In this document: positions 7,829 to 26,086 of the stretch, one piece after another | How the letters are laid out: every line of letters begins with the position of its first letter | Numbering within the stretch: the stretch's first letter is position 1 | NCBI GenBank assembly: GCA_034376725.1 | Contig: JAXMJH010000002.1 | Span: 12,541 to 76,540, forward strand | Origin: Lysobacteraceae bacterium | GTDB lineage: Bacteria > Pseudomonadota > Gammaproteobacteria > Xanthomonadales > Xanthomonadaceae | Reading direction: 5' to 3' | Length of the DNA: 64,000 bases | Notes under the pieces: generated by a model | Told to the model about the DNA's origin: nothing | Database searches by the model: none | What the model saw: the letters and a program-made list of their open reading frames with translations, nothing else | Made by a program: the position numbers and the translations under genes

Positions 7829-9946
7829 TCAGATATCTCTGTGCCGGGCCAGCAGCGAGGCCTGGGCGCAGTGCGGCATCTCGTCGTCGCCCGGTTCGAT
7901 GCGGGTGTATTCGCCGTCGGCGTGCAGTGCCCAGGCCTCGGTGTTGTCGGCCAGATAGGTTTCGAGTTCTTCGTGATACACCCGCCGGGCGAGTTCCCGA
8001 TCGCGAATCGGAAAGCACACCTCGACCCGGCGCAGCAGGTTGCGCTCCAGCCAGTCGGCGCTGGCGCAATAGATTTCCGGGTCGCCGGCATTGGCAAACC
8101 AGTACACCCGGCTGTGTTCGAGGAATCGCCCGACGATCGAGCGCACCCGGATGTTTTCCGAAACGCCGGGTACGCCGGGCCTGAGACAGCAGGCGCCGCG
8201 CACGATCAGATCGATCTGCACGCCGGCCTGCGAGGCGGCATACAGCGCCTGCATGATGGTGGGCTCGTTGATCGCGTTGATCTTGACGATCAGTCGGCCG
8301 CCGGCACCGGAGCGGGCGTGGCGCGCCTCGCGCTGGATCTTGTCGATGAGACTGGAGTGCAGGGTGAATGGCGATTGCAGCAGCTGTTTCAGGCTGATCA
8401 GCGGAGCCAGGCCAGAGAGCTGCTGAAACACTTGGTGGACGTCATCGCTGATGTCCTCGCGTGCGGTCAACAAGCCGATGTCGGTGTAGGCCCGTGATGT
8501 GCCGGCGTGGTAGTTGCCGGTGCCCAGGTGCACGTAGCGGCGAAGCTTGCGGCCCTCGCGGCGGACGATCAGCAGCATCTTGGCGTGGGTCTTGTAGCCG
8601 ACTACGCCATAAACCACCTGCACGCCGGCTTCCTGCAGCCGGTCGGCCAGGCGGATGTTGGTTTCCTCATCGAATCGCGCGCGCAGCTCGACCACTACGG
8701 TGACATCCTTGCCGGCCTGCGCGGCGCGGATCAGGTGTTCGACCAGGGTGGCGTCGCTGCCGGTGCGATACAGGGTTTGTTTGATTGCCAGAACGTCCGG
8801 GTCGTCGGCTGCCTGTTCGACCAGGTCGAGTACGGCGCTGAACGCATCGAACGGCTGATGCAGCAGGATGTCGCGCTCGCGCAGCGTCGCGAACATCTGC
8901 TCGCTGTCGTTGCCGAGGGTGCGCGGCCGAAAGGGCGGGTACTTAAGCTCCGGGCGGTCGACCAGATCGTAGACCTGGCTGGCCCGGTTCAGATTGACCG
9001 GACCGTTGATCCGGTACACGGCGGTTTCGGGCAGGTCGAAATTCTTCAGCAATATCTTGACGATGTTGCGCGGGCAGTGATGCGCGATCTCCAGCCGGAT
9101 GGCGCGTCGGAAGCCGCGCCCGGCCAACTCGTCCTTGAGCGCATGGGCGAGGTTTTCCACTTCTTCCTCGTCGACGAACAGCTCGGAGTTGCGGGTGACG
9201 CGGAATTGGTAGACGCCCTTGACCTTCATGCCGGGAAACATTTCCGCGACGAAGGCCGACAGCACCGCCGAGAGAAACACGAAGTGATCGCCGTCTCCGG
9301 TCACCTCGCCGGGCACCCGGATGATCCGCGGCAGCGAGCGCGGTGCGCGCACGATGGCCATGTGGCCGGCGCGGCCGAAGGCGTCCTTGCCGCTGAGCAC
9401 CACGACGATATTCAGCGATTTGTTGAGAATCCGTGGAAACGGATGGGCCGGGTCGAGGCCCATCGGCGAGAGCACCGGCGCAATCTCTTCGCGGAAGTAG
9501 GCACGCAGCCAGCGTCTGAGGCGTGCGTTCCATGCTTCGCGCGGCAGTATCTGGATGCCGGCCTGTTCCAGCGCCGGGCGCAGCACGTCATTCCATTCGC
9601 GGTACTGGTCTTCGACCAGGTCGCCCGCCTTGTCGTAGATCCGCTTGAGGATGGTCGCCGCACCCAGGCCGTCGGCTGCCGGTGCGCCACCATATTTGAG
9701 CTGGCTGCGGATGGCGGGTACCCGGACCTCGAAGAATTCATCGAGGTTGGTGCAGCTGATACAGAGAAAGCGCAGCCGTTCCAACAAGGGAACGCGCGGA
9801 TCCTGTGCCTGGGCCAATACCCGGCGATTGAAGGCGATCTGGGAAATTTCCCGGTTCAGATACAGCGCCGGATCGGAAAGCGCGCGCGCGGGCTGTTCGG
9901 TCGGTCCGTCGCCGGCAGTTTCGGATTTTTTGGTGGGTGTGGGCAC
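7829..9946 (-). CDS. ppk: polyphosphate kinase 1
   Basis: 705 aa. LYLNREISQIAFNRRVL and VGYKTHAKMLLIVRRE (phosphohistidine region) are PPK1 hallmarks. Confidence 0.95.
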   Translation of the reverse strand: MPTPTKKSETAGDGPTEQPARALSDPALYLNREISQIAFNRRVLAQAQDPRVPLLERLRFLCISCTNLDEFFEVRVPAIRSQLKYGGAPAADGLGAATILKRIYDKAGDLVEDQYREWNDVLRPALEQAGIQILPREAWNARLRRWLRAYFREEIAPVLSPMGLDPAHPFPRILNKSLNIVVVLSGKDAFGRAGHMAIVRAPRSLPRIIRVPGEVTGDGDHFVFLSAVLSAFVAEMFPGMKVKGVYQFRVTRNSELFVDEEEVENLAHALKDELAGRGFRRAIRLEIAHHCPRNIVKILLKNFDLPETAVYRINGPVNLNRASQVYDLVDRPELKYPPFRPRTLGNDSEQMFATLRERDILLHQPFDAFSAVLDLVEQAADDPDVLAIKQTLYRTGSDATLVEHLIRAAQAGKDVTVVVELRARFDEETNIRLADRLQEAGVQVVYGVVGYKTHAKMLLIVRREGRKLRRYVHLGTGNYHAGTSRAYTDIGLLTAREDISDDVHQVFQQLSGLAPLISLKQLLQSPFTLHSSLIDKIQREARHARSGAGGRLIVKINAINEPTIMQALYAASQAGVQIDLIVRGACCLRPGVPGVSENIRVRSIVGRFLEHSRVYWFANAGDPEIYCASADWLERNLLRRVEVCFPIRDRELARRVYHEELETYLADNTEAWALHADGEYTRIEPGDDEMPHCAQASLLARHRDI

Positions 9947-9985
9947 GGCGACAGATTACCGCAGCCGGTTGCATGGCGCCGGCAT

Positions 9986-11311
9986 TCAATGCCCTCGCTC
10001 GACGATTTCCGGCTCCGCGAGTCTGACCCGGGACGGCGGAAAAATGCAGCTGAACGTGCTGCCCCGGCCCATCTCGCTGGCGATCTCAAGCCGGGCATCG
10101 TGCAGGTTCAGCACATGCTTGACGATCGCCAGTCCAAGGCCGGTGCCGCCATTTTCACGCGACCGGCTGGGCGACACCCGGTAGAAGCGCTCGGTAATCC
10201 GCGGCAGGTGCTGGCGCGCGATACCCGGACCGGTGTCGCGCACCCGGAATGCCAGCTCTCCCTGATCGTTCACCTCGCAACCCAGGGTGACCGAACCGCC
10301 TTGCGGCGTGTACCGCACGGCATTGCCCACCAGGTTGGAAAACGCGCTGTGCAGTTCTTTGGTCGAGCCGGAGAGGTCGGCGTCGCAGGCATCTTCGACC
10401 ACGATCCGGTGCCGGCCCAGGCTGAGCGCCTCTCCCTCACGTCGAAGCGTTTCCAGCAATGGCCGCAGCGCCACGGTTTCTTCATTGACGTGGGCGCTGG
10501 CTTCCAGTCGCGACAGGGTGAGCAGGTCCTCGACCAGTTGCGCCATACGCGAAGACTGGCGGCGCATTTCGGTGAGCATCTCGACGTGGTTGGGCATGTC
10601 CTCGGGTTCGATCATGTCGAGGTAGCCATGGATCACGGTCAGCGGCGTGCGCAGCTCGTGCGATACGTTGGCCACGAAGTCGCGCCGCACCTGCTCCAGA
10701 TGCATCAGTTTGCTCACGTCGCGGGCGACCACCAGCCATTCGCGATTGCCGTAGTCGATCAGCCGAAGGCTCAAGCGACTGCGTTCATCGGCAGGCGCCG
10801 GCACGTCCAGCAACGGCTCGTCGGTCTGGCGCTGATCGAGCCAGTCGAGCACCCGGGGATTGCGCACCAGATTGTGGAAGCGTGCGCCGATGTCGCGCGG
10901 GTAGCGCAGGCCGAGCAGACGGGTGGCGGCTTCGTTGAACCAGGCGATCTGCAGATCGCCATCGAGAATCACGATTCCGTCGGGAAGTGCGGCGAAGGCG
11001 CGCCGGTAAGACCGGACCATGTCCAGCAGTCGCCGCCTGCGCTGCCAGGACTCGCTCTGGCGCTTGTGCAGTTGGGTGTCGAGCTCGGCCCACAGACCGC
11101 GGCCATCAGGCAGTCGAAAGCGCTGACGGCGGGCCAGCATGCACAGCGCCCGCCACAAGCGCCGATAGTGCCAGGCGACCAGTGCCGTGGAGGCCAGTGC
11201 GAGGGCCGGCCAGAATTGGCCCAGTACGATGCCAATCACCGCCGTGGAGGCATAGACGGCGGCCAGATTCCAGAGCGATTGCTGAGTGGAGCGGCCGAGA
11301 AAGTAGTTCAT
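9986..11311 (-). CDS. phoR: phosphate regulon sensor histidine kinase PhoR
   Basis: Two N-terminal TM segments, a PAS-like region, H-box FVANVSHELRTPLT and ATPase G-box GTGLGLAIVKH. It is immediately downstream of phoB. Confidence 0.9.
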   Translation of the reverse strand: MNYFLGRSTQQSLWNLAAVYASTAVIGIVLGQFWPALALASTALVAWHYRRLWRALCMLARRQRFRLPDGRGLWAELDTQLHKRQSESWQRRRRLLDMVRSYRRAFAALPDGIVILDGDLQIAWFNEAATRLLGLRYPRDIGARFHNLVRNPRVLDWLDQRQTDEPLLDVPAPADERSRLSLRLIDYGNREWLVVARDVSKLMHLEQVRRDFVANVSHELRTPLTVIHGYLDMIEPEDMPNHVEMLTEMRRQSSRMAQLVEDLLTLSRLEASAHVNEETVALRPLLETLRREGEALSLGRHRIVVEDACDADLSGSTKELHSAFSNLVGNAVRYTPQGGSVTLGCEVNDQGELAFRVRDTGPGIARQHLPRITERFYRVSPSRSRENGGTGLGLAIVKHVLNLHDARLEIASEMGRGSTFSCIFPPSRVRLAEPEIVERGH

Positions 11312-11325
11312 GCCGCAGGAGTGGC

Positions 11326-12015
11326 TCAGGTGGCGGTGGAGAAACGATACCCCGCACCGCGCACGGTTTGTATCATCGGATCGAGCCGGAACGGCTCAAG
11401 CGTCTTGCGCAAACGTCGGATATGAACATCGACCGTGCGCTCTTCGACGTAGACGTTGCCACCCCAGACGTGGTCCAGCAGCTGGGCGCGCGAGTACACC
11501 CGCTCCGGGTGGGTCATGAAGAAGTGCAGCAGGCGATATTCGGTCGGACCGATCGCTACCGGATCGTCGTTGGCGAATACCCGATGGCCAGCGCCGTCGA
11601 TCCGCAGATCGCCGAGCGACACGCTGCCGTCAGCCTCATCGGGGCGGCTGCGGCGCAGCACCGCCCGGATGCGCGCCAGCAATTCGCGCGCCGAAAAGGG
11701 CTTGACCACGTAGTCGTCGACGCCGGCATCCAGGCCGCTGACCCGATCATTCTCCTCGCCGCGCGCGGTCAGCATGATGATCGGGATTTCCCGCGTCAGC
11801 GTCTCCTTGCGCCAGCGTCTAGCCAGTTCGAGGCCACTGATTCCCGGCAGCATCCAGTCGAGGAGAATCAGGTCGGGCACTCGCCCGGCAATGGCGTTCT
11901 GCGCTTCGCGGGCATCCTGAGCCGGAACCGGGTCGAATTCGCCCTTGCGCAGCGCGTAAACGATCATGTCGCGGATCGATGCCTCGTCCTCTACGACCAG
12001 GATGCTCTTGTGCAC
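11326..12015 (-). CDS. phoB: phosphate regulon response regulator PhoB (OmpR family)
   Basis: GTG start at 12015 gives [11 protein letters not shown]... Receiver domain ([14 protein letters not shown]) plus winged helix ([27 protein letters not shown]). The longer track ORF to 12369 has no support. Confidence 0.9.
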
Positions 12016-14838: not shown

Positions 14839-15843
14839 ATGAATCAAACCATTGCAGTGCTGCGCGGCGACGGAATCGGCCCGGAAATCATGGATGCAAC
14901 CCTGCATGTGCTCGATGCTCTGCAAGTCGGCCTGGATTACGAGTTCGTCGATGCAGGCCTGGTGGCGCTGGAGAAAACCGGCGAACTGCTGCCTCAGGCC
15001 ACGCTCGATGCCATCGGCAAGCATCGCATCGCGCTGAAGAGCCCGCTGACCACCCCGATCGGCGCCGGCTTCTCGTCGTTGAACGTGGACCTGCGCCGGC
15101 GCTTCGATCTGTACGCCAACATCCGGCCGGCGATCAGTTTTCCCAACACCCGGTCGCGGTACGAGAACATCGACCTGATCACGGTGCGCGAAAATACCGA
15201 AGGCGCCTACATCGGTGAAGGCATGGAAGTGTCGGCCGACGGCGAAGTGGCGACACTCACCCAGAAGATCACCCGACGCAACTCATCGCGCATCGTGCGC
15301 TATGCGTTCGAGCTGGCGCGCCGGCTCGGGCGGAAGAAGGTCACTGCGGTCCATAAGGCGAATATCCTCAAGTCGACCTCCGGCCTGTTCCTGAAGGTGG
15401 CCCGCGAGGTCGCCGAGGAATACCCCGACATCGAGTTCACCGAGATCATCATCGACGCCTGCTGCATGAAGCTGGTCATGACGCCCGAGCAGTTCGACGT
15501 GATCGTCACCACCAATCTGTTCGGCGACATTCTGTCCGACCTGTGTGCCGGGCTGATCGGTGGGCTGGGGCTTGCGCCGGGCGCCAACATCGGTGCCGAT
15601 GCCGCCATTTTCGAAGCCGTGCACGGCTCTGCCCCGGACATTGCCGGGCAGGGCATCGCCAACCCGTGCGCGCTGCTGCTGGCCGCTGCCCAGATGCTCG
15701 ACCACCTGGGCAAGCTCGACAAATCCCGGGCGCTGCGCGCCGCCATCGTCGCCACCCTCGAAGCCCGCGACAGCGTCACGCCGGATCTGGGCGGCAGCGG
15801 AAGCACCGGCTCGTTCGCCAGAGCCATCGCCAGCCGGGTATAG
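14839..15843 (+). CDS. isocitrate dehydrogenase, NAD-dependent type (isocitrate/isopropylmalate dehydrogenase family)
   Basis: Start trimmed to MNQTIAVLRGDGIGPEI. LKSPLTTPIG..SLNVDLRRRFDLYANIRP and NLFGDILSD are family motifs. At 334 aa it resembles IDH3-like NAD-IDHs. Confidence 0.75.
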   Translation: MNQTIAVLRGDGIGPEIMDATLHVLDALQVGLDYEFVDAGLVALEKTGELLPQATLDAIGKHRIALKSPLTTPIGAGFSSLNVDLRRRFDLYANIRPAISFPNTRSRYENIDLITVRENTEGAYIGEGMEVSADGEVATLTQKITRRNSSRIVRYAFELARRLGRKKVTAVHKANILKSTSGLFLKVAREVAEEYPDIEFTEIIIDACCMKLVMTPEQFDVIVTTNLFGDILSDLCAGLIGGLGLAPGANIGADAAIFEAVHGSAPDIAGQGIANPCALLLAAAQMLDHLGKLDKSRALRAAIVATLEARDSVTPDLGGSGSTGSFARAIASRV

Positions 15844-16018
15844 CCCAGGCATTGCCGACTACCTGCGGGCGCGCTTGGGACGACCGGGCGCGCCACACGC
15901 CCCTATGCACACGACCCCACCTTGCAGGGTGAGCGACCTTGCGGGTTGGATCCAGAAGCGGCGAAACGCGTTGATGTGCCTCCCTCCGGCGAGCCAAAGC
16001 ACGATCGCCCGCCAGATA

Positions 16019-16057
16019 TTGACTGCGGTCAAGTGCCAATTGTGAGAAAGGTATTAA
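16019..16057 (+). promoter_or_regulatory. FNR/CRP-family type palindrome TTGAC-TGCG-GTCAA plus candidate -10 TATTAA
   Basis: Perfect TTGA-N6-TCAA dyad at 16019..16032. TATTAA at 16052..16057 would put the dyad centre near -40 of a start about 16065, the geometry of a class II FNR-type promoter. It lies about 100 nt upstream of the first cytochrome gene. Confidence 0.5.
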
Positions 16058-16131
16058 GATCGACCTGAGCCTTTTTCTTACGCGCCTGACGGTCTCCAAG
16101 GCGCATCAAAAAAAACAAAGGAATCAATGCT

Positions 16132-16461
16132 ATGAAAACACATCTCGTTATGGTTCCGGTTCTTGCGCTGGCCTTTGTCGTCTCTCCGCTGCGCGCGGCG
16201 GACGAATCTGCCGCCATGGATCTGATCAAGGCAAGCAAGTGCTCGACCTGCCACAGCGTCGACAAGGACAAGGATGGCCCGTCTTTCAAGAGCGTCGCTG
16301 ATGAGTACCGGGATGATCCCGAGGCCGTGGCCAAGTTGATCGACGTGGTGAGCAAACCGCACATGATCGAGATCGATGGCGAAGAAGAGGAGCACGGAGT
16401 GGTCAAGACCCGGGATGCGGCCAAGATCGAGAACCTCGTCCAGTGGATTCTTTCCCTGTGA
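16132..16461 (+). CDS. periplasmic monohaem class I c-type cytochrome (c551/c8-like; MtoD-like position)
   Basis: Signal peptide, a single CSTCH motif, and a downstream DGPSFKSVADEY resembling the VGPAYKDVA segment of c551. SD AAGGAA lies 8 nt before the ATG. Confidence 0.8.
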   Translation: MKTHLVMVPVLALAFVVSPLRAADESAAMDLIKASKCSTCHSVDKDKDGPSFKSVADEYRDDPEAVAKLIDVVSKPHMIEIDGEEEEHGVVKTRDAAKIENLVQWILSL

Positions 16462-16532
16462 CCGTTTGATCGACCTCCGGCACTCAGCCGGACACTCGAT
16501 CCGTTCGTAAACACTCACGGGACTGCCTCAAA

Positions 16533-17171
16533 ATGAAACGGATATGGAGTGGTATTCGCCGGTTCGGGCTCCTCAAGACCTTCTTGAGCGCGACTCTGGT
16601 GCTGTTCGTCGCTGTTCTTCTGGTGGTTGGCGGAGCTGCCGGATTGGCTTGGACCAACACCGAGGCGTTCTGCATTTCCTGTCACGAAATGAAGGACAAC
16701 GTTTACGCCGAGTTCAAGGGCACCATCCACGACACCAACCGCAGCGGCGTTCGCGCGGTGTGCTCGGATTGTCATGTGCCCCGGCAACCGGTGGATACCA
16801 TCAAACGCAAATTTGCGGCCAGTCTCGAGCTTTATCACGCGCTGCGCGGCACCATCAATACGCCGGAAAAATTCGAGGCGCGGCGTTTCCAGATGGCAGT
16901 CAAGGTCTGGACGCGCATGAAGAAAACCGACTCCATCGAGTGCCGCAACTGTCACCACCGGGACGCCATGAGCCCCGACCTGCAGTCGGCGCGCGCCCAG
17001 CGTCGACACGCCAAGGCGGACGAGGATGGCATGACCTGTATCGACTGCCACTTCGGAATCGCGCACGGCGAACCCACCGGGGATTTCGGGCCGCGCGATA
17101 TTCAGGTGAACCATGGGGCAGTGACTTTGCCGGATCCGGTGGCGGTACGTAACGCATCGGTCGAAAAATGA
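16533..17171 (+). CDS. NapC/NirT/TorC/CymA family membrane-anchored tetrahaem cytochrome c (copy 1)
   Basis: N-terminal TM helix followed by four CXXCH motifs (CISCH, CSDCH, CRNCH, CIDCH). Family context FC.SCHEM and NRSGVRA.CSDCHVP is present. Confidence 0.9.
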   Translation: MKRIWSGIRRFGLLKTFLSATLVLFVAVLLVVGGAAGLAWTNTEAFCISCHEMKDNVYAEFKGTIHDTNRSGVRAVCSDCHVPRQPVDTIKRKFAASLELYHALRGTINTPEKFEARRFQMAVKVWTRMKKTDSIECRNCHHRDAMSPDLQSARAQRRHAKADEDGMTCIDCHFGIAHGEPTGDFGPRDIQVNHGAVTLPDPVAVRNASVEK

Positions 17172-17247
17172 CGCGGATCGGGCCAAGCCATGTGGCGCGG
17201 TCCGATCCGACCTTAGAAGGTCTTAAGTCAAACGTGAGGAACGGATC

Positions 17248-18126
17248 ATGAAGAACACATTGCTGGGGCTGCTCGCCGCCGTCTCGTTGCTGATTGCAGC
17301 GCACGGATCGGCGGGCGCGCAGGAATTGTCGGCCGACGCCCTCGATCGATTGTCGTCTCAAGGCGTCGGCGCTGCGGTCTGCGCCGAATGTCACGAGTCC
17401 GAGGTCACGGTCAGCGTATTCCACAGGGACTGTCAGGCCTGCCATACCAATGCGACCGAGCACGCGACGGCACGCCGGCCGGCACGGGTCGAGCCCGGCA
17501 AGCCGGGCGTCGCACAGTGCGAGGGATGCCACGCCAAAGACGCCGAGCGGATGAATTTTGCCTTCAGCGATCACCACAAGGCGGGCCTGGAGTGCAGCGA
17601 TTGTCATGGCGTGCACGGGCCCAAACTCAAGGTTGGCGGGCAGAGCATCATCCAGCACCGCACCCAGGAAGGCTCGGCGTTGTGCGCAACCTGCCACCAG
17701 GACGTCCTGGCGCGCTTCAATATGCCGTCGCATCACCCGGTGCTGGAAGGCGGGGTTTCCTGTCTCGGCTGTCACGACCCGCATTCGAGCAAGAAGCTCA
17801 GTCTGGCCGACCAGACACAGCAGTGCCTCGATTGCCATCAGCGCCTGCGCGGCCCGCACGTCTTCGAGCACGCTCCAGTGGTCGAGGATTGCGCCAACTG
17901 CCACGATCCACACGGCTCGCCGAATGCCCGACTGCTGGTCGCCGGTCAGCCCATGCTTTGTCTGCAGTGCCACTCGCTGCCCAACAATCGTCACGGCTTG
18001 ACCGGATCCAACGCGCTCACCAGCGCTGCGCTGAGCCAGCGCACGCCGGGTGCGGTACTGCGCGATTGCGTCGCCTGCCATGGTCAGATTCACGGCAGCG
18101 CGCAGGATCAGCACCTTCGCTATTAG
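17248..18126 (+). CDS. MtrA/DmsE/PioA/MtoA family periplasmic decahaem cytochrome c (copy 1)
   Basis: Signal peptide and ten CXXCH motifs in 292 aa (CAECH, CQACH, CEGCH, CSDCH, CATCH, CLGCH, CLDCH, CANCH, CLQCH, CVACH). C-terminal CHGQIHGS resembles the family end. Confidence 0.85.
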   Translation: MKNTLLGLLAAVSLLIAAHGSAGAQELSADALDRLSSQGVGAAVCAECHESEVTVSVFHRDCQACHTNATEHATARRPARVEPGKPGVAQCEGCHAKDAERMNFAFSDHHKAGLECSDCHGVHGPKLKVGGQSIIQHRTQEGSALCATCHQDVLARFNMPSHHPVLEGGVSCLGCHDPHSSKKLSLADQTQQCLDCHQRLRGPHVFEHAPVVEDCANCHDPHGSPNARLLVAGQPMLCLQCHSLPNNRHGLTGSNALTSAALSQRTPGAVLRDCVACHGQIHGSAQDQHLRY

Positions 18127-18203
18127 CGGCTGCACCGGTGGGCTGGCTCACGGCGAGCCCACCGGCAAATCGAACTTGAGAGTTCTGAATTGGAGGCAAT
18201 GCC

Positions 18204-20438
18204 ATGAAAACGCGCACTTCGCTCAGCCTGATGCTGCCGACAGTGTTTCTGCTTGCCGGGGGGCCGCTCTATGCAGCCGACGAGTCGGCGGAAGTTGAAG
18301 GCCAGGTAAACGAGTCGTCCACAGCCACCGAGATAACCGCTGCGACGACGACCACCAGCGAAACCCGTACGACTGGTGAGATCACGACCAAGCTTTACGT
18401 ATTCGACTATTTCAGCGGCTTCGGTGAGGACCGCACCCAGTTCGTTGAGCGATACAACTATCAGAAGGGGTTCTCCGGCGATCGTCGGTCCGATTTCTTC
18501 GTGGATGCCGACTTCCGCCTGAAAGTGGTGGACGATGATCGCGAGCTGCTGAGCATCGAGCGTCTCGGATTCGGTCGTCACAATCAACGCGGCACGCTGG
18601 AAGCCAATCGCGAGACCTTCGGTATCGAAGCGTACTACTCGCAGTTCCGTTCGGCGACCGGCGGTCTCGACTGGTTGTTCAGCCCGAACCAGGTGCCGGG
18701 CGGCACCGAGCTGGCCGCGTTTTTCCCGGCGCAGACCAACACCAACTCCGGCTTCCTTGCCCAGTTCAATGACGACTCCGGTCGCACCCGGTTCGACGTC
18801 AAGCGGGTCAGCTATGGCGCTGCGGTAAAAATCAAGCCGGTGGTGTTTGAGGATCGAGGGTCGATCAAGGTCGGCTACGACGGCTATCAGCGCACCGGAA
18901 ACCAGCTCACCAGTTTTGTTCTGGGCGGAGGCGACATCCGGGAGGCCGGGACCAATGCCCAAACCAGCGGCCGGGTGTTGCAGCGCTGGCGTGGCATCAA
19001 CCAGGACATCGACGAAAGCGTGAATCGCTTCAAGTTGACCCTGGCCGGAACGCCGGGCAACAAGTTGGTATTGGCCTACGATTTCTCGTGGGACAAGTTC
19101 AACAACAACGGCACGGATCTGATTCACAGCGACGTGGTGCCGTTCCTGGGCTCGGAGTGGCAATACAACACGGGCGGCGATGCCACCCGGCCGCTCGGCT
19201 TCGCGCCGGAGAGTCATCAATTCAGACACGGGCTGAGGGCGTCGCGCACGTTCGGAAAGACCGCGATTTCCGGTGGCTTCGGTCAGTCCTGGCTTGAACA
19301 GGACAGCTTCACCCAGCCGCAGACGCGCGCCGGTTTTGTTGGCAAGACCAGCACCGACAATGCGTTCTTCAACATCGCGAGCAATGTGGTGGCTGGCGTC
19401 AGGCTGGAGGGCTTCCTGCGCTACTACCAGCGCGACAACGACTCCACCTTTCCTGCGCCAGGTCTGATCGACCCGTTCGCTGGCGAGCAACTTGGCGTTC
19501 GCGTCAATGAGATCGAAACCTACACCTACGGCGCGAATGCCTCGTGGCGCAGCCGAACGCTCGATTCGAACTTCATCCTCGGGTGGAAGCACGAGGACAA
19601 GCAGCGCGATCTGACCTTTTCCGGTGCATCGGTCGATCCGACGCTGAACGGCATCACCGCCGAGCGCTCGTTGTTCCGCGAGGACACCGAGTACGACGAG
19701 GTGTCGCTGAAGATCGTTTCCCGCCTGGGCAACAGTACGACTCTGCGTCTGACGCCGTCCTACCTGTGGGCCGACAAGGTCGGCCTGGTGACCGATCCGG
19801 AAACTTCGTTCCAGTTCAAAAGCAATCTGGGACACGTGACCGAGGCAGGTACCTTGTTCAACGCCTATTACAACTACCGTGGCCGGAAAAACAACGACCT
19901 GTCGTTCCTCGGCACCGACGGCAACCTGGCAACCCAGGACCTCGATCGCTCCACCCAGTCGGCCGGGCTATCGGTCGGTTGGAACCCGAGCGAGTGGATC
20001 AGCGCGCAGACCAGCATTGCCTGGCTTCAGGACGACTTTACGGCGCTGTTCTACGGCAGCAATCGCCGTCGATTCGAAGGACCGAACAACCCGGTGATCT
20101 TTTTCCTCCGAGACGAATCCAGTTACGACGTCGACACCTATGTCGCAACGGCCTCGGCCGACTGGCAGGCCAGCGACAGTTTGAGCTACCAGTTCGGTTA
20201 CACATTTTCGAGATCCGACGGCAAGACCGCCAGCGGCGTGATTTTCGATGAGCTTCCGACCCAGGACGGCAGAATCGACAATACGCTGCATAGCCTCCAG
20301 GTTGGCTTGCGCTACCAGTACACCCAAAAGATCGGCGTTTCGGGCATGTATGTCATCGATTACTACACCGATGACGCGTTCGATGATCTGACCGGTGGCG
20401 TACACTCGCTGATGCTGGGGCTGACGGTTGCATTCTGA
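18204..20438 (+). CDS. putative MtrB/PioB-like outer-membrane beta-barrel porin (copy 1, divergent)
   Basis: 744 aa with a signal peptide and a Thr-rich linker. Alternating beta-strand-like composition rich in Y/G/D/N, with terminal aromatic ...LGLTVAF. It sits immediately after the decahaem gene. The assignment rests mainly on context and composition. Confidence 0.6.
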   Translation: MKTRTSLSLMLPTVFLLAGGPLYAADESAEVEGQVNESSTATEITAATTTTSETRTTGEITTKLYVFDYFSGFGEDRTQFVERYNYQKGFSGDRRSDFFVDADFRLKVVDDDRELLSIERLGFGRHNQRGTLEANRETFGIEAYYSQFRSATGGLDWLFSPNQVPGGTELAAFFPAQTNTNSGFLAQFNDDSGRTRFDVKRVSYGAAVKIKPVVFEDRGSIKVGYDGYQRTGNQLTSFVLGGGDIREAGTNAQTSGRVLQRWRGINQDIDESVNRFKLTLAGTPGNKLVLAYDFSWDKFNNNGTDLIHSDVVPFLGSEWQYNTGGDATRPLGFAPESHQFRHGLRASRTFGKTAISGGFGQSWLEQDSFTQPQTRAGFVGKTSTDNAFFNIASNVVAGVRLEGFLRYYQRDNDSTFPAPGLIDPFAGEQLGVRVNEIETYTYGANASWRSRTLDSNFILGWKHEDKQRDLTFSGASVDPTLNGITAERSLFREDTEYDEVSLKIVSRLGNSTTLRLTPSYLWADKVGLVTDPETSFQFKSNLGHVTEAGTLFNAYYNYRGRKNNDLSFLGTDGNLATQDLDRSTQSAGLSVGWNPSEWISAQTSIAWLQDDFTALFYGSNRRRFEGPNNPVIFFLRDESSYDVDTYVATASADWQASDSLSYQFGYTFSRSDGKTASGVIFDELPTQDGRIDNTLHSLQVGLRYQYTQKIGVSGMYVIDYYTDDAFDDLTGGVHSLMLGLTVAF

Positions 20439-20482
20439 CGATTCCGCGTCCCGGAATACCGCAAGACAGATTGGTTGAATCC

Positions 20483-20510
20483 AACCCTCTCCCGCTGGGA
20501 GAGGGTTTTG
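20483..20510 (+). terminator. rho-independent terminator after module 1
   Basis: AACCCTCTCCC-GCT-GGGAGAGGGTT (11-bp perfect stem) followed by TTTG, 45 nt after the stop at 20438. Confidence 0.75.
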
Positions 20511-20891
20511 CGCTGGAGAGCCGTTGGGCCGCACAGTCCACCGCGCTTTTCGCCGTATCTACTGACCTTTTCCGGGCTTTTGGGCCGAATTTCTCTCTGA
20601 GGCGCAAGGCGCTCTCCGGGCGTTGGTAGGCCGGACTTCAAATCCCTCCTTGAGAGTCGTCTCCGCCGATTCCTGAACCATGGTGGCGCTATGGCTCGTA
20701 GAGCCGCCGAACATCTGTCCTTACGGCCGACAATCGATTGGACCGGCAATGCCCGGCAGGCCACCGGTTGCTTCAAGCGTGTGCGCCAGGGCGGTCATGG
20801 CCGTTTCGCTCGATTGCTGTTCTGCCTTGGTGCGCCGCTCTCAGACGGCCCCGCCGCGCCTCTCACTGATTGATTCGACGCCCCGCCAGGA

Positions 20892-21042: not shown

Positions 21043-21651
21043 ATGGCACGTATTTTCGAGCACTGGCGCGAGGCGTTTCGCAAGTCGCGCGTTGCGTTTC
21101 TTGGCCTCCTGCTGATCGGCCTGTTGCTGGGAGCAATCGCGCTGGCCGGCACGGCGGTGGTGGTGGAGTCGACCAGCACCCTGGAATTCTGTACCTCCTG
21201 TCACGAGATGGAGGCCTTCGTATTCCAGGAATACAAGGAAACCCACCATTACCAGAATCGCACCGGCGTACGCGCCGAGTGCTCCGACTGCCATGTGCCG
21301 AAGCCGCCGTTGGCCAAGATGGCGCGCAAGATCCGCGCGACCTTCACCGAGGTTCCCGGCCATTTCCTGGGCCGGATCGACACTCGGGAGAAGTTCGAGG
21401 CGCATCGGCTGACCATGGCCGAGCGGGTCTGGGCCGAGATGAAGGCCAACGATTCGCGCGAGTGCCGCGATTGCCATGATCGCGAGGCGATGCTGATGGA
21501 CAAGCAGCGCCCACGCTCGCGCAATCAGCACGAAAGCGCCATCGCCAGCGGCGAAACCTGCATCGATTGCCACAAGGGCATCGCCCACAAGAAACCCACG
21601 CTGCCCGAAGACGAGGCCAGCGAAGAGGAAGAGACCGATTTCAGCCTGTGA
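21043..21651 (+). CDS. NapC/NirT/TorC/CymA family membrane-anchored tetrahaem cytochrome c (copy 2)
   Basis: TM helix plus four CXXCH motifs (CTSCH, CSDCH, CRDCH, CIDCH). It is clearly paralogous to the 16533..17171 product and has an acidic C-terminal tail. Confidence 0.9.
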   Translation: MARIFEHWREAFRKSRVAFLGLLLIGLLLGAIALAGTAVVVESTSTLEFCTSCHEMEAFVFQEYKETHHYQNRTGVRAECSDCHVPKPPLAKMARKIRATFTEVPGHFLGRIDTREKFEAHRLTMAERVWAEMKANDSRECRDCHDREAMLMDKQRPRSRNQHESAIASGETCIDCHKGIAHKKPTLPEDEASEEEETDFSL

Positions 21652-21698
21652 TTCGACCCATCCCCGGGTCAGTGCATGCGCATCCAGTGGAGACCGTT

Positions 21699-22664
21699 AT
21701 GAACACAACCAACGTTAGTCAGATTTCTGTCTGCGGCTTGCCGCGCAGCCTGCTCGCCGTCGCGCTGATGCTTGCCGCCGGCTGGGCGCAGGCGGTCGAC
21801 TGGAGTGGCGTTCCGGCAACCGACGTGCCGCTGTTCTATCCCGGACAGGCGTCATGGGAATGGGTGATGACCGAAAAGGATCACAGCGGCGCACCCAACT
21901 TCCGCAGCGGGAAGAACTGCAAAGCCTGTCATGACGGCGAACAGGGCGATATCGGCAACACCATCGTGTCCGGCGAGAAACTGGTGCCGGCCCCTGTCGC
22001 TGGCCGTCCCGGAGGAATCTCGCTGCATGTGCAGACCGCCCGCGATGCCGAACGGTTGTATTTCCGGCTGCGCTGGAAAGCCGGCTCAGGCGCGCCAGCG
22101 CTGGACGCCGACACCGCCGCGCGGGTGACTGTGATGATCGACGACGGCACGGTAAAAGAAGCCGCGCGGGCCGGCTGCTGGGGCAGCTGTCACGACGACA
22201 GCATCGGCATGGCCAGTGCATCGGCCGACGGAAGAACCGCCAAATATCTGAGTGCTTCGCGCAGCAAACTCACCCGGCAGGGCGGTGGCGAGAACATCAA
22301 GCCGGCTGCGGATCTGGCGGCGCTCAAGTCGAGCGGCGCCTTTCTCGAATACTGGCAGGCCAAGCTCAATCCCGGACAGCCGGCCAAGGCCGTGTCCGGC
22401 TACATCCTCGACAAGCGCCACGAGACGACGGGCACGGCGGTGGCCGCCGATGCCACGTTCGAGGGCGGCGAGTGGACGGTGGTGTTGAGTCGTCCGCTGG
22501 CGGCCGCTGGCGAAGGCAGCAAGTCGATCGTGGCCGGCAAGACCTACAACATCGGCTTCGCCGTGCATGACGATCACGCCGACCACAGGCATCACCACGT
22601 TTCGTTCGAATACACCCTCGCGCTCGACGGAAGCGGCAGCGATTTTGTTGCCAGGGCGAAGTAG
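21699..22664 (+). CDS. periplasmic EB_dh-like (ethylbenzene dehydrogenase gamma / type II DMSO-reductase haem subunit-like) domain protein with c-type haem motif(s)
   Basis: Start trimmed to the ATG at 21699 (GGAG 8 nt upstream) with signal peptide ...AAGWAQA|VD. One CKACH, one CWGSCH (CX3CH) and a His cluster HDDHADHRHHH. Segments LYFRLRWKA, FLEYWQAK, GGEWTVVLSRPL and GKTYNIGFAVHDD resemble the EB_dh domain pattern from memory. Confidence 0.65.
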   Translation: MNTTNVSQISVCGLPRSLLAVALMLAAGWAQAVDWSGVPATDVPLFYPGQASWEWVMTEKDHSGAPNFRSGKNCKACHDGEQGDIGNTIVSGEKLVPAPVAGRPGGISLHVQTARDAERLYFRLRWKAGSGAPALDADTAARVTVMIDDGTVKEAARAGCWGSCHDDSIGMASASADGRTAKYLSASRSKLTRQGGGENIKPAADLAALKSSGAFLEYWQAKLNPGQPAKAVSGYILDKRHETTGTAVAADATFEGGEWTVVLSRPLAAAGEGSKSIVAGKTYNIGFAVHDDHADHRHHHVSFEYTLALDGSGSDFVARAK

Positions 22665-22715
22665 CCCGAAATCCGGAGCAGTCGAGGCAGACATCGCAAG
22701 TATCTGGAGAACGTC

Positions 22716-23693
22716 ATGAAAAAAGCCCTTGCACTCTTGCTCGGGACCGGACTGTCGGCCATCGTGCTGCTAGCCTCAGGGGTCGGCCCTGCCGCGGCGC
22801 AGTTGCTGAGCGAGCAACCGGAGAACCAGTCCGGAAAAACCGGCGCAGAGGCGGTGCGTACCTGCACCCGCTGTCACGACGAATCCAGCGAATATCCGGT
22901 GCTGTCGATCCTCAAGTCCAAGCACGCGGTGGTGGCCGACGGCCGCACCCCGTTCGCCGACAAGGCCTGTGCTTCCTGTCACGGCGCCAGCCTCGATCAC
23001 ATGGAGGCGGTGGGCGACGGCGCCACGCGGGCAGCGCCGGACATCGTTTTCTCGAAGTCCGGTCCGACTTCAAAGCACGATCAGAACGCCGTGTGCATGG
23101 ATTGCCACAAGGGCAGTGCGCGCATCCACTGGCAGGGCAGCGTCCACGAGCAGCAGGACGTGGGCTGCGTCGACTGTCACCAGTCGCATGTCGGCGATGA
23201 CCCGGTGTTGGCCGCACAGACCCAGTCCGACCAGTGCTTTGCCTGCCACAAGGAAAAGCGCGCCGAGATTCATCGCCCGTCCAGTCACCCGATTCGCGAA
23301 GGCAAGGTGGCATGCAGCGACTGCCACAACCCGCATGGTTCCAACGGTCCCAAGCTGCTGACCAAGGCCACGCTCAACGAGACCTGCTACGACTGCCACA
23401 CCGAGAAGCGCGGCCCGTTCCTGTGGGAGCACCAGCCGGTGCGCGAGGATTGCTCGCTGTGCCACAAGCCGCATGGCTCGGTGCATGACAACCTGCTGGT
23501 CACGCGCGGCCCGTGGCTGTGCCAGCAGTGTCATATGGCGCAGTTCCACCCGAGCACGGCCTTCAGCGGCACCGGCCTGCCGGGCGCCAGCACACCATCG
23601 GGAGCGCAGCAGGTGCTGGGCAAGAACTGCCTCAACTGCCATTCGCAGATCCATGGTTCCAATCACCCGTCCGGTGTGCGCAAGACGCGTTAG
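22716..23693 (+). CDS. MtrA/DmsE/PioA/MtoA family periplasmic decahaem cytochrome c (copy 2)
   Basis: Signal peptide and ten CXXCH motifs in 325 aa (CTRCH, CASCH, CMDCH, CVDCH, CFACH, CSDCH, CYDCH, CSLCH, CQQCH, CLNCH). Canonical family C-terminus CLNCHSQIHGSNHPSG. Confidence 0.9.
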   Translation: MKKALALLLGTGLSAIVLLASGVGPAAAQLLSEQPENQSGKTGAEAVRTCTRCHDESSEYPVLSILKSKHAVVADGRTPFADKACASCHGASLDHMEAVGDGATRAAPDIVFSKSGPTSKHDQNAVCMDCHKGSARIHWQGSVHEQQDVGCVDCHQSHVGDDPVLAAQTQSDQCFACHKEKRAEIHRPSSHPIREGKVACSDCHNPHGSNGPKLLTKATLNETCYDCHTEKRGPFLWEHQPVREDCSLCHKPHGSVHDNLLVTRGPWLCQQCHMAQFHPSTAFSGTGLPGASTPSGAQQVLGKNCLNCHSQIHGSNHPSGVRKTR

Positions 23694-23767
23694 CGCGGAC
23701 GAAACGACAGATGCCGGCCCGCCAAGGCGTGGCCGGCGAAGCGAAAAACGCAACGGCGAGGTGTCCC

Positions 23768-26086
23768 ATGAAACGCAATCGCAACCCATCAAGCTCCCAG
23801 AACCGGGATGGCCCGGTCCGCGTGCTGGCCCGCCGGCCGCTCTACCTGCTGCTGATGATGAGTCTGGCCATGCCGGCCGTCGCCCTGGCTCAGGACGATG
23901 ATCCGTTTGCGCTCGACGAGCCAACCGCCCCGGCGATGAGCGAAGCACAGATCAGGGATCTGACCGAAATCCGCAGCGTGGTCGAGATCGGCATCGGTTT
24001 CGTCACCCAGGATTCGTTCCGCTTCGGCAAGTTCAACGGTCTGGAGGACGACGGCCCCTACGGCGTTTTCAATCTCGACTACTACAAGCGCGGCGCGTGG
24101 GACGGCGACAGCGCAGATTACGTGCGCATCCGGGCCGACAACCTGGGTCTCGATTCGCGTTCGGTCGATGCCGAAGTCGGCCGACAGGGCGACTATCGGG
24201 TTCGGGTGAGTTACGACGAGATTCCCAGCAATCGCAGCGATTCGGCGCAGACCATCTTTCAGGGTGCCGGCGGCAACAACCTCACCCTGCCTCCGGACTG
24301 GGTGCCGGCGCAGAACACGGCGGGAATGACCAATCTGCTTTCCAGCCTGCGTGATGTCGAGCTGCGCACTGAGCGTCAGCGGTTCGGCGCGGGCCTGGAC
24401 AAGCTGCTTCCCGGCGACCTGTCGTTCTCGATCGATTACCAGTACGAGGAAAAGGACGGCCTGAAAGGTTTGGCCGGCACGTTCGGCAATACCGGCGGCA
24501 ATCCGCGTTCGGTGCTGCTGCCCGAGCCGGTCGACTACGAAACCCACAAGATCGATCTGGTCGGTCGCTACATCCAGGACAAGATGCAGGTCGAGCTGCG
24601 CTATCACGCCTCGATTTTCAACAACGACAACGCCTCGCTGCGCTGGCAGAACCCGTTCAGTGCGATCAATGGCTGGGTGCCTTCGGCGGGTTTCCCCACC
24701 GGCGTGGGCGAGATGGCCCTGCCGCCCGACAACACCTTCCATCAAGGTACGGCGCTGTTCGGCTACAACTTCGATAATCGCAACCGCATCGTCGCCGACA
24801 TCGCCATCGGACGGATGAGTCAGAACGACCCATTCCTGGCGTTCACCGTCGACCCGATTCTCGCGGCGGGGATCACCGAACCACTGCCCCGGGATTCGCT
24901 GGATGGCCGCATCGATACCATGGTGGCCAACCTGCGTTATTCCGGTCGGCTGACCGACCGGCTGAACCTCAACGCCAGCTACCGCTACGACGAGCGCGAC
25001 AACGAGACGCCCAGGGATCGCTACGCGATGATTTCGGCCGACTCGATCGCACAGGACCTCAGCCCGACCAGCAGCCGCGTTCGCTTCAATCAACCCTACA
25101 GCTACGAGGAGAACCAGCTCCGGCTGGACCTGAACTACCGGCTGGCCGCCCGTACCCGGGTCAATGTGCTCGGCGAATATCGCGATATCGATCGCACATT
25201 CACCGAGCGCAACAGCTCCGAGGAGTGGACCTACGGCGCCGGGCTGATCCATCAGCTGTCCGACACGCTGGACCTGAATCTGAAGCTCTCGCGCGCCGAG
25301 CGGGATGGTTCGCAGTACGACGGCACGGCGCCGTTCCGCTCCGGGTTCACGCCGGAGCATGTCGCCTCGCTGCCCGGTGGTTTCGAGAACCCGCCGCAAC
25401 TGCGTCGGTTCCACCTGGCCAACCGCGACCGCGATCTGGCGGGCATTCTGGCCACCTGGACACCGTCGGAGTTCTGGTCGGTCGGCCTGGACGTGAACTA
25501 CAGCCGGGACGATTACACCGACTCCGAACTGGGTCTGACCGGCGCGCGGATTCGAGCCTATACCCTGGAATTCAACGCCACGCCGGTGCGCGATCTGTCG
25601 ACCTACGCGTTCTTCACCCACGAGGAAAACGACTATGACCAGAACGGCGTGAGCTTTCAGGGCGGAGCGAACCGCGTCAACCAGGTGAACGATCCGAATC
25701 GGTTCTGGCAGGCGCTGCACCGCGAGCGTATCGATACCGCCGGCTTGGGCTTCGCCTGGAAGCCCAATGACGGTCGCTACCAGTTCGGTCTCGACCTGGT
25801 GAGCACGCTGTCTAAGGCCGATGTTGCGGTAAGCACGGGATCGGCGCTCAGCTCGGCGCCGCTGCCCAGCAGTCGCGTTCGGCTCAACTCGGCCACGCTG
25901 TTCGGTACCTTCGCAATCACCGACGATCTGGCCGTGCGCGGCGACATCTGGCACGAGCGCTATCGCAGCGAGGACTTCGCGTTGGATATCCCGGCCAACC
26001 AGCTGGCCAACGTGATCCTGTTCGGCGAAGAAGCGCCCGACTTCGATGTGACCTTCGTCAGCCTGTCGCTGATCTATCGGTTCTGA
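23768..26086 (+). CDS. MtrB/PioB family decahaem-associated outer-membrane beta-barrel protein (copy 2)
   Basis: Start trimmed to the ATG at 23768, with signal peptide ...AVALA|QDD. The N-terminal pattern FRFGKFNGLEDDGPYGVFNLDYY...NLGLDSR...GDYRV...YDEIP is typical of the MtrB/PioB family. C-terminus LSLIYRF. Confidence 0.85.
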   Translation: MKRNRNPSSSQNRDGPVRVLARRPLYLLLMMSLAMPAVALAQDDDPFALDEPTAPAMSEAQIRDLTEIRSVVEIGIGFVTQDSFRFGKFNGLEDDGPYGVFNLDYYKRGAWDGDSADYVRIRADNLGLDSRSVDAEVGRQGDYRVRVSYDEIPSNRSDSAQTIFQGAGGNNLTLPPDWVPAQNTAGMTNLLSSLRDVELRTERQRFGAGLDKLLPGDLSFSIDYQYEEKDGLKGLAGTFGNTGGNPRSVLLPEPVDYETHKIDLVGRYIQDKMQVELRYHASIFNNDNASLRWQNPFSAINGWVPSAGFPTGVGEMALPPDNTFHQGTALFGYNFDNRNRIVADIAIGRMSQNDPFLAFTVDPILAAGITEPLPRDSLDGRIDTMVANLRYSGRLTDRLNLNASYRYDERDNETPRDRYAMISADSIAQDLSPTSSRVRFNQPYSYEENQLRLDLNYRLAARTRVNVLGEYRDIDRTFTERNSSEEWTYGAGLIHQLSDTLDLNLKLSRAERDGSQYDGTAPFRSGFTPEHVASLPGGFENPPQLRRFHLANRDRDLAGILATWTPSEFWSVGLDVNYSRDDYTDSELGLTGARIRAYTLEFNATPVRDLSTYAFFTHEENDYDQNGVSFQGGANRVNQVNDPNRFWQALHRERIDTAGLGFAWKPNDGRYQFGLDLVSTLSKADVAVSTGSALSSAPLPSSRVRLNSATLFGTFAITDDLAVRGDIWHERYRSEDFALDIPANQLANVILFGEEAPDFDVTFVSLSLIYRF

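Follow-up and report, generated by a model that had tools for sequence, protein, structure and literature searches.

Within a stretch of 64,000 nucleotides from a Lysobacteraceae bacterium (contig JAXMJH010000002.1 of assembly GCA_034376725.1, here called the window) we analyzed a gene encoding an exported protein of the EB_dh family that carries two putative haem-c attachment motifs (the EB_dh protein). The gene is located between cymA2, encoding a quinol dehydrogenase, and mtrA2, encoding a decahaem cytochrome, which in turn is followed by the porin gene mtrB2. We conclude that the EB_dh protein is probably a periplasmic relay between CymA2 and MtrA2, of the type represented by NirB, PcrO and NapO. 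The new part, judged by the literature searched, is that MtrAB clusters have widely recruited this known carrier in a conserved arrangement, a four-gene variant of the porin-cytochrome conduit.

The association with mtrAB recurs in other genomes. We surveyed 17 genome loci from the GTDB genome collection together with a number of metagenomic loci. The order cymA, EB_dh gene, mtrA, mtrB is found in genome loci L001-L010, L012, L016 and L017 and also in metagenomic loci L023-L025, among them the 97%-identical relative L023. The taxa concerned are Lysobacteraceae, Ahniellaceae, Rehaibacterium terrae DSM 25897, Chiayiivirga, Steroidobacteraceae and Caulobacteraceae, and further unclassified Gamma- and Alphaproteobacteria of the same genome collection. 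All genome loci with enough downstream sequence (14/14) carry both mtrA and mtrB, and mtrA follows the EB_dh gene wherever the downstream part of an Mtr-type locus is available. Upstream, cymA is present in all related loci with upstream sequence except L014 (a Rhodospirillaceae metagenome-assembled genome, MAG) and L028, where EB_dh gene, mtrA and mtrB are kept without an adjacent cymA. Divergent stand-alone members of the family (L028, L029, L031 and L032; 33-42% identity) are each followed by an MtrA with ten CXXCH motifs, the contig of L029 stopping before any porin gene could appear. Clustering of all open reading frames (ORFs) of the 17 genome loci yielded no fifth conserved gene; the shared families are cymA, EB_dh, mtrA and mtrB.

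An earlier, sequence-only reading of the window had placed the gene between the quinol dehydrogenase and the decahaem cytochrome of a second Mtr-type module and had called it specific to that module. The position is correct, as cymA2 and mtrA2 flank the gene, and the co-occurrence with mtrAB that the reading wished to see surveyed is indeed recurrent; "specific to module 2" is an understatement given how widespread the four-gene arrangement is. We also agree that the component stands outside the Mtr, Mto and Pio operons as described in the literature searched. That literature, with most subscription journals outside it, contained no paper pairing the EB_dh/NirB-type family with Mtr, Mto or Pio clusters. 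Baker 2022 and He 2017 make no mention of an EB_dh gene in such clusters, and a recurring match (PMC10654088) concerns the archaeal FoxC and is unrelated. In a midpoint-rooted neighbour-joining (NJ) tree without support values, the nir-linked fusions described below form one clade within the Mtr-linked spread; such a placement hints that the Mtr association of the EB_dh family is old.

The EB_dh protein matches Pfam EB_dh (PF09459) with an E-value of 1.4e-35 and 123.9 bits (cut-off 33.3) over residues 33-302; the match spans positions 2-236 of the 236 in the profile and is the sole Pfam match in the protein. An AlphaFold2 model built from a 48-sequence alignment (pLDDT 78.1, pTM 0.80) was compared with the PDB using Foldseek. 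The best match is EbdC (2ivf_C, E 2.9e-10, target-length-normalized TM-score 0.60), followed by NxrC (7b04_C, E 3.3e-7) and then by CBM9 modules. Both results confirm the EB_dh fold that the sequence-only reading had recognized; the segments it quoted (LYFRLRWKA, FLEYWQAKLNP, GGEWTVVLSRPL, GKTYNIGFAVHDD, CKACH, CWGSCH and HDDHADHRHHH) are all present. Its description of a 321-aa exported protein is equally sound, since the ORF is intact and starts with a Sec signal. This signal consists of R16, the hydrophobic stretch LLAVALMLAAGW and the cleavage site AQA|VDW, at which A-x-A followed by [VIL]DW is kept across the homologue alignment. Neither a twin-arginine motif nor a lipobox was found in the N-terminus. 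A Sec signal without lipobox fits a periplasmic location with Ccm-dependent haem attachment.

Resemblance to the haem-b gamma subunits of molybdoenzymes is restricted to the fold and to the C-terminal part. NCBIfam TIGR03477 (DMSO_red_II_gam) gives 45.9 bits where 169.85 are required, and the EbdC equivalog NF042980 gives 21.5 bits where 400 are required, both matches being confined to the C-terminal ~80 residues; sequence similarity to EbdC and NxrC is likewise limited to the C-terminal third. Here residues 216-303 align with positions 115-203 of the EbdC-model profile, with the C-terminal His-rich strand at its end. Leu209 is aligned with EbdC Met108, and H299-V301 with the region of EbdC Lys201 (by the profile offset). 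By the curated cut-offs, the EB_dh protein is not a canonical gamma subunit.

Instead, the protein can be assigned to the NirB/PcrO/NapO dihaem subfamily, a membership that rests on the published description together with 33-41% identity to nirS-linked fusions. Identity to the fusions in L018, L019 and L021 amounts to 33-35% (E 3e-53 to 4e-56) and to the Azospirillum fusion to 41% (E 4e-56), the similarity extending over ~285 residues. The defining combination of an EB_dh domain with one CXXCH and one CWXXCH motif is present, and the gene is adjacent to one for a NapC/NirT-type tetrahaem protein. What the window lacks is the linkage to periplasmic reductases for N-oxides or perchlorate (nirS, nap, pcr) known from this subfamily; the genes downstream are mtrA and mtrB. 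In a large protein collection the protein has at least 1000 homologues of ~320 aa, falling into 545 clusters at 50% identity (E<=1e-3) or 98 (E<=1e-30). Exact-sequence look-ups of the EB_dh protein and of P0144 and P0231 gave no match.

To describe conservation we aligned the EB_dh protein with its 120 closest (Mtr-type) and with 120 nir-type homologues (33-97% identity). The mature protein has exactly four cysteines, all within CKACH and CWGSCH. None of the 240 homologues departs from C74, C77 and H78 where its sequence covers this part; C160, W161, C164, H165 and D167 are invariant as well, CWXXCH being found in 240/240. Further invariant residues are H62, M171, R188, R240, W259, H290, H299 and S302, with K182 (239/240) and R297 (238/240) nearly so. 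Such invariance across 240 homologues argues that neither motif is due to chance, and upholds the two putative covalent-haem motifs of the sequence-only reading. Its view that they had been acquired at this locus is not tenable: they are family-wide, were published in 2014 (PMC3884062) for NirB and PcrO, and therefore define the named subfamily. From the two motifs we infer that the protein binds two covalent c haems, one at each.

Of the His-rich stretch near the C-terminus, H290 and H299 alone are invariant in the family. Residue 296 (nt 22584-22586) is His in 113/120 Mtr-type homologues against 0/120 nir-type homologues, all of which have Ala, Ser, Gly, Arg or Thr; His296 could be a position for partner specificity or ligand switching. 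Positions 293 and 298 are aromatic in relatives (Y, F or H), and H300 is His in all nir-type homologues and Y, H or F among those of Mtr type. The "His cluster" is thus best read as a decorated form of a conserved H-x6-R-x-H-x-V-S strand; an inserted metal-binding tag was considered and rejected on this conservation. The haem of EbdC, as Kloer and colleagues reportedly described in 2006, is ligated by Met and Lys, the lysine being Lys201. H299 would be a reasonable distal ligand, because the strand matches the end of the EbdC model where this lysine is found. Candidate axial ligands of the EB_dh protein are H62, M171, K182, H290 and H299.

Relatives linked to denitrification genes show how the family is used elsewhere. 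Directly after nirS we found NirT::EB_dh fusions in four loci (L018:7224-8939, L019:341-2143, L021:7200-8972 and L026:6269-7891), the hosts being Hahellaceae and Oleiphilaceae MAGs and plasmid p4 of Azospirillum brasilense Sp7, with norCB or nirN nearby. An Ala-, Glu-, Lys- and Pro-rich linker of ~75-100 residues takes the place of the signal peptide, and the fused domain begins at V[ND]W, which is the mature N-terminus of the EB_dh protein. The linker may tether the carrier and still let it reach periplasmic partners. Among the nir-type homologues 37/120 also list PF03264, and several are named "cytochrome C552" by NCBI; NapC fusions occur in 0/120 of the Mtr-type homologues. No direct EB_dh-MtrA fusion was found among the long homologues. 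Other architectures comprise tandem EB_dh domains with both haem motifs each, NapC/NirT with two EB_dh domains, and class I cytochrome c with EB_dh (P0241, 694 aa; P0242, 924 aa; P0329, 621 aa). NCBI labels EB_dh homologues either "ethylbenzene dehydrogenase-related protein" or "cytochrome C552", and JGI tags many stand-alone EB_dh-only homologues "cytochrome c-type protein NapC", probably carried over from the NapC/NirT::EB_dh fusions.

The family is also known from experiments, so that "most likely genuinely uncharacterised", as the sequence-only reading put it, does not apply: its members have names (NirB cytochrome c552, PcrO, NapO) and knockout phenotypes. Melnyk et al. (2014) described Dsui_0143 of Azospira suillum PS as an EbdC-like PF09459 protein encoded beside a NapC-like gene, and gave the CXXCH and CWXXCH motifs for Dsui_0143/PcrO and NirB (PMC3884062); this NapC-like/EB_dh pair was later named PcrQ/PcrO (PMC4623255). 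Wang et al. (2018) describe both PcrO and the paralogous NapO as soluble dihaem carriers: when pcrO and napO are deleted together, anaerobic growth on nitrate or perchlorate is lost, and either gene restores it (PMC5845722). In a 2026 Stutzerimonas paper NirT is tetrahaem and NirB dihaem, a fused NirTB is present in a Halomonas strain, and NirT/NirB are discussed as possible cd1 activators (PMC13086519). Of the two roles that had been offered for the EB_dh protein, a periplasmic shuttle or a metal/substrate adaptor, the shuttle fits the Azospira genetics, whereas a dedicated metal-binding cluster is not borne out by the two invariant histidines.

In Table 1 we list the features of the gene and its surroundings. 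In module 2 (21043-26086) the gaps from cymA2 to the EB_dh gene (47 nt) and from there to mtrA2 (51 nt) are short and on the same strand, hence operon-like. CymA2 matches Pfam Cytochrom_NNT (E 2.4e-67) and NCBIfam napC_nirT (230.9 bits, under the curated cut-off), and the TorC model with its N-terminal half only (223.7 bits); it shares 55% identity with the NirT part of the L018 fusion, which is nirS-linked, and 51% with CymA1. MtrA2 reaches 297.8 bits with the NCBIfam DmsE-family decahaem model (cut-off 192.2) and MtrB2 465.3 bits with TIGR03509 (cut-off 240). With adjacent genes for an MtrA-like decahaem cytochrome and an MtrB/PioB porin, module 2 qualifies as a porin-cytochrome cluster.

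Table 1. Positions of the EB_dh gene, its sequence features and the genes of the two modules in the window
Feature	Position	Strand	Remarks
EB_dh-fold gene	21699..22664	+	321 aa + stop; putatively dihaem c-type cytochrome, NirB/PcrO/NapO family
Shine-Dalgarno GGAG	21689..21692	+	6 nt before ATG at 21699; seen in the sequence
Sec signal peptide, residues 1-32	21699..21794	+	predicted cleavage AQA|VDW
CKACH (C74-H78)	21918..21932	+	canonical haem-c attachment motif
CWGSCH (C160-H165)	22176..22193	+	CX3CH or "CWXXCH" atypical haem-c motif within invariant G-C-W-x-x-C-H-x-D
HDDHADHRHHH (residues 290-300)	22566..22598	+	C-terminal strand; candidate distal haem ligands H290, H299
cymA2	21043..21651	+	membrane-anchored NapC/NirT-family tetrahaem quinol dehydrogenase; 202 aa, 4 CXXCH
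mtrA2	22716..23693	+	periplasmic decahaem cytochrome; 325 aa, 10 CXXCH
mtrB2	23765..26086	+	MtrB/PioB-family outer-membrane porin; Pfam MtrB_PioB E 5.6e-151
Monohaem cytochrome c, module 1	16132-16461		109 aa; occupies the place equivalent to the relay
cymA1, module 1	16533-17171		
mtrA1, module 1	17248-18126		below both decahaem cut-offs
mtrB1, module 1	18204-20438		MtrB_PioB only 66 bits; also touches the Geobacter GSU2204 model

In the window, ORFs of at least 600 aa with a Pfam match are ppk, mutS, alaS, lon, htpG, ppiD and the two mtrB genes, the other ORFs of this size being without Pfam match; a molybdopterin oxidoreductase is not among them, in agreement with the sequence-only reading, which had seen no molybdoenzyme alpha or beta partner. 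Using tblastn, nirS, norB and norC were not found anywhere in the window, and a nir, nor or nap context of the gene was discarded on the basis of these tblastn and Pfam searches. The EB_dh protein itself has no MtrC/MtrF Pfam domain.

Module 1 lies directly upstream of module 2. The two modules are not recent duplicates: when 16533-20438 is compared with 21043-26086, CymA1 and CymA2 are 51% identical, MtrA1 and MtrA2 are 33% identical, and MtrB1 and MtrB2 have no significant BLAST similarity. In the metagenomic relative L023 module 1 (window 15838-20812) is missing, with flanks that are 96-98% identical and an EB_dh protein that is 97% identical: isocitrate dehydrogenase is followed by cymA2 after 398 bp, and the window has ~5.0 kb in place of 172 bp. 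Module 1 is thus a strain-level insertion, or else a deletion occurred in the relative. Further upstream, a 972-aa ORF without Pfam match (8507-11425, plus strand) overlaps with two ORFs of the minus strand, ppk (7829-9946) and one of 441 aa (9986-11311), the latter equal in length to the PhoR-type kinase gene beside ppk in L023; the 972-aa ORF is probably a high-GC shadow ORF and not a gene.

Regulatory genes are found next to some of the surveyed clusters. In Caulobacteraceae loci, cymA-EB_dh-mtrAB is accompanied by a regulator of the Crp/Fnr family and by a PAS histidine kinase plus LuxR-type response regulator (L012:1875-5269; also L013 and L016), and a Steroidobacteraceae locus has a Crp/Fnr-family regulator (L010:6519-7259). 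The clusters may be under oxygen or redox control. Separately, a 2.9-kb contig assigned to a Bathyarchaeia MAG (L022, 1384-2313) has frame-broken EB_dh matches in three pieces of 28-45% identity, which could be explained by faulty assembly, by wrong binning of the contig or by a pseudogene.

Taken together, these data suggest the following mechanism. Members of the family act as obligate partners of a NapC/NirT-type tetrahaem quinol dehydrogenase, from which they receive electrons and pass them to a periplasmic acceptor; at this locus the acceptor would be the decahaem MtrA2, threaded through the MtrB2 porin. Quinol, CymA2, the EB_dh-fold dihaem cytochrome, MtrA2/MtrB2 and the outside would form one conduit, in which the EB_dh protein, probably soluble, would shuttle or bridge electrons over the periplasmic gap. 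Its role as a dihaem intermediate carrier downstream of a NapC-type dehydrogenase is taken from the literature on relatives and may hold here by analogy. Direct contact with the quinol dehydrogenase is suggested by the natural NirT fusions, and the persistent EB_dh-mtrA adjacency points to MtrA as the other partner, making a direct contact of the EB_dh protein with MtrA2 plausible. As to direction, we slightly favour an outward flow that starts at quinol and ends at an extracellular acceptor, since the relatives characterized so far all supply terminal reductases and since Crp/Fnr and PAS-kinase/LuxR regulators are found near some loci.

Some observations weigh against the proposed relay. Confidence of the AlphaFold2 model is lowest around the haem motifs (~47-48 for residues 51-70 and ~56-61 for residues 161-180), although this would be expected for loops near H62 and CWGSCH/M171 that fold round a cofactor. 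With M171 and K182 invariant, a third haem (non-covalent haem b) or another function is conceivable. Finally, the EB_dh gene is directly upstream of mtrA, the place that mtrC occupies in Shewanella. It might be argued from this gene order that the protein is a cell-surface partner of MtrAB replacing MtrC, whose CBM9/DOMON-like beta-sandwich would contact minerals, humics or polysaccharide-bound metals; an MtrC-like gene is indeed not conserved in the cluster, the fold is common with carbohydrate-binding CBM9 modules, and L014 and L028 lack the adjacent cymA. MtrC-type proteins are lipoproteins, whereas the EB_dh protein has a signal of the SPase I type (AQA|V) and no lipobox, and two haems would make a short wire beside a decahaem MtrC. 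Moreover, in relatives the domain is joined to inner-membrane NirT on its periplasmic side and serves the periplasmic NirS, and PcrO and NapO feed the periplasmic PcrABC and NapAB (PMC5845722). We therefore consider a surface location decidedly improbable.

Alternatively, the protein might bind or convert something in the periplasm, as a metallochaperone or Fe/Mn adaptor using the His-rich strand, as a peroxidase-like or ligand-sensing haem protein, or as an activator of a partner cytochrome. Seven histidines within 11 residues, H296 kept in the Mtr-type homologues and absent from the nir-type ones, more conserved ligands (H62, M171, K182, H290, H299) than two bis-ligated c-haems require, and the cd1-activator discussion for NirT/NirB (PMC13086519) all speak for such a role. 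Nonetheless, 4/7 of these histidines vary even in close relatives (positions 293, 298 and 300 are Y, F or H, and H296 is Mtr-type-specific), the strand matches the ligand-bearing end of the EB_dh model, and NapO and PcrO of Azospira are interchangeable toward two reductases, as expected of an electron carrier, so that a binding or catalytic function seems improbable. Still less can be said for a haem-b gamma subunit standing on its own, whose type II DMSO-reductase-family molybdoenzyme would have its alpha and beta subunits encoded elsewhere in the genome. The Pfam family and fold are common with EbdC and NxrC, and invariant M171 with near-invariant K182 recalls the Met/Lys ligation ascribed to EbdC; against this stand the scores far under the TIGR03477 and EbdC-equivalog cut-offs, the confinement of EbdC similarity to the C-terminal third with leucine at the Met108 position, the genomic linkage to cymA and mtrAB, and the lack of a molybdopterin subunit both in the window and in the families common to the 17 genome loci. 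The two invariant haem-c motifs, too, do not belong to gamma subunits as described (PMC3884062). Such a subunit is extremely improbable, and a version with a nearby molybdoenzyme was rejected on the curated cut-offs and the Pfam search of the window ORFs.

The relay itself could take a bolder form, which we regard as unlikely. The EB_dh cytochrome would then be a fixed third subunit attached to CymA as well as to MtrA at the periplasmic end of the latter, completing a continuous trans-envelope haem wire and a distinct, ancient class of conduit; or the extra Met and Lys would hold a third haem b or a reactive site acting on substrates that enter via MtrB. If this were true, the placement in the NJ tree would derive the NirB, PcrO and NapO carriers from an extracellular-electron-transfer module.

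Comparison with known systems shows which parts of the locus have precedents. PcrO and NapO of Azospira suillum PS (Dsui_0143, Dsui_1177) have PF09459 with one CXXCH and one CWXXCH (PMC3884062), are encoded beside a NapC/NirT-type tetrahaem dehydrogenase (PcrQ, NapC) and were genetically shown to be soluble carriers between dehydrogenase and terminal reductase (PMC4623255, PMC5845722); the likeness is by description, and their partners are the soluble periplasmic PcrABC and NapAB, whereas the partner in the window is outer-membrane MtrAB. NirB (cytochrome c552) of the Pseudomonas/Stutzerimonas stutzeri nirSTBM cluster is likewise dihaem with both motifs and encoded after nirT (PMC3884062, PMC13086519), but it is nirS-linked and its type is often fused to NirT, with invariant H300 and without H296. 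EbdC (2IVF chain C) and NxrC (7B04 chain C) share the Pfam family and beta-sandwich fold, but are non-covalent haem-b subunits of molybdoenzymes. Compared with EbdC, the EB_dh protein has an N-terminal extension bearing CKACH and ~85 extra residues between the strands bracketing the haem-ligand loop, which carry CWGSCH, M171 and K182.

TorC is a NapC-type tetrahaem protein fused to an extra C-terminal monohaem c domain. As a quinol dehydrogenase with an appended carrier domain that passes electrons on to the terminal partner, it parallels the NirT::EB_dh fusions, although its extra domain is not of the EB_dh fold and the carrier in the window is a separate gene. MtrC and OmcA differ from the EB_dh protein, which has two haem motifs and neither a lipoprotein signal nor the decahaem MtrC architecture. 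The nearest functional counterparts are MtoD of Sideroxydans lithotrophicus (mtoA-mtoB-mtoD-cymA) and STC/CctA and FccA of Shewanella, proposed as periplasmic relays between CymA and MtrA/MtoA (PMC5566968). This likeness is functional only: there is no homology, MtoD being a class I monohaem cytochrome of small size and STC having four haems.

The passage of electrons over the periplasm has been worked out in Shewanella, where STC and FccA carry them, and MtoD is the proposed carrier in Sideroxydans; the step is open for most clusters having MtrAB or MtoAB only. The window locus and about two dozen related ones, always with mtrAB and usually with cymA, provide a conserved candidate for this step. 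Among the bearers of the cluster, Rehaibacterium terrae DSM 25897 is a named, culturable type strain. The finding also bears on annotation: tools that call Mtr/Mto clusters currently pass over the EB_dh gene, which database entries name "ethylbenzene dehydrogenase-related" or, incorrectly, "NapC". Quite apart from its role, a haem-b fold that has a haem-c version with a CX3CH site deserves attention. More generally, the pair of NapC/NirT protein and EB_dh cytochrome appears to be a portable quinol-dehydrogenase module, serving nitrite, nitrate and perchlorate reductases and, at the loci described here, extracellular electron transfer.

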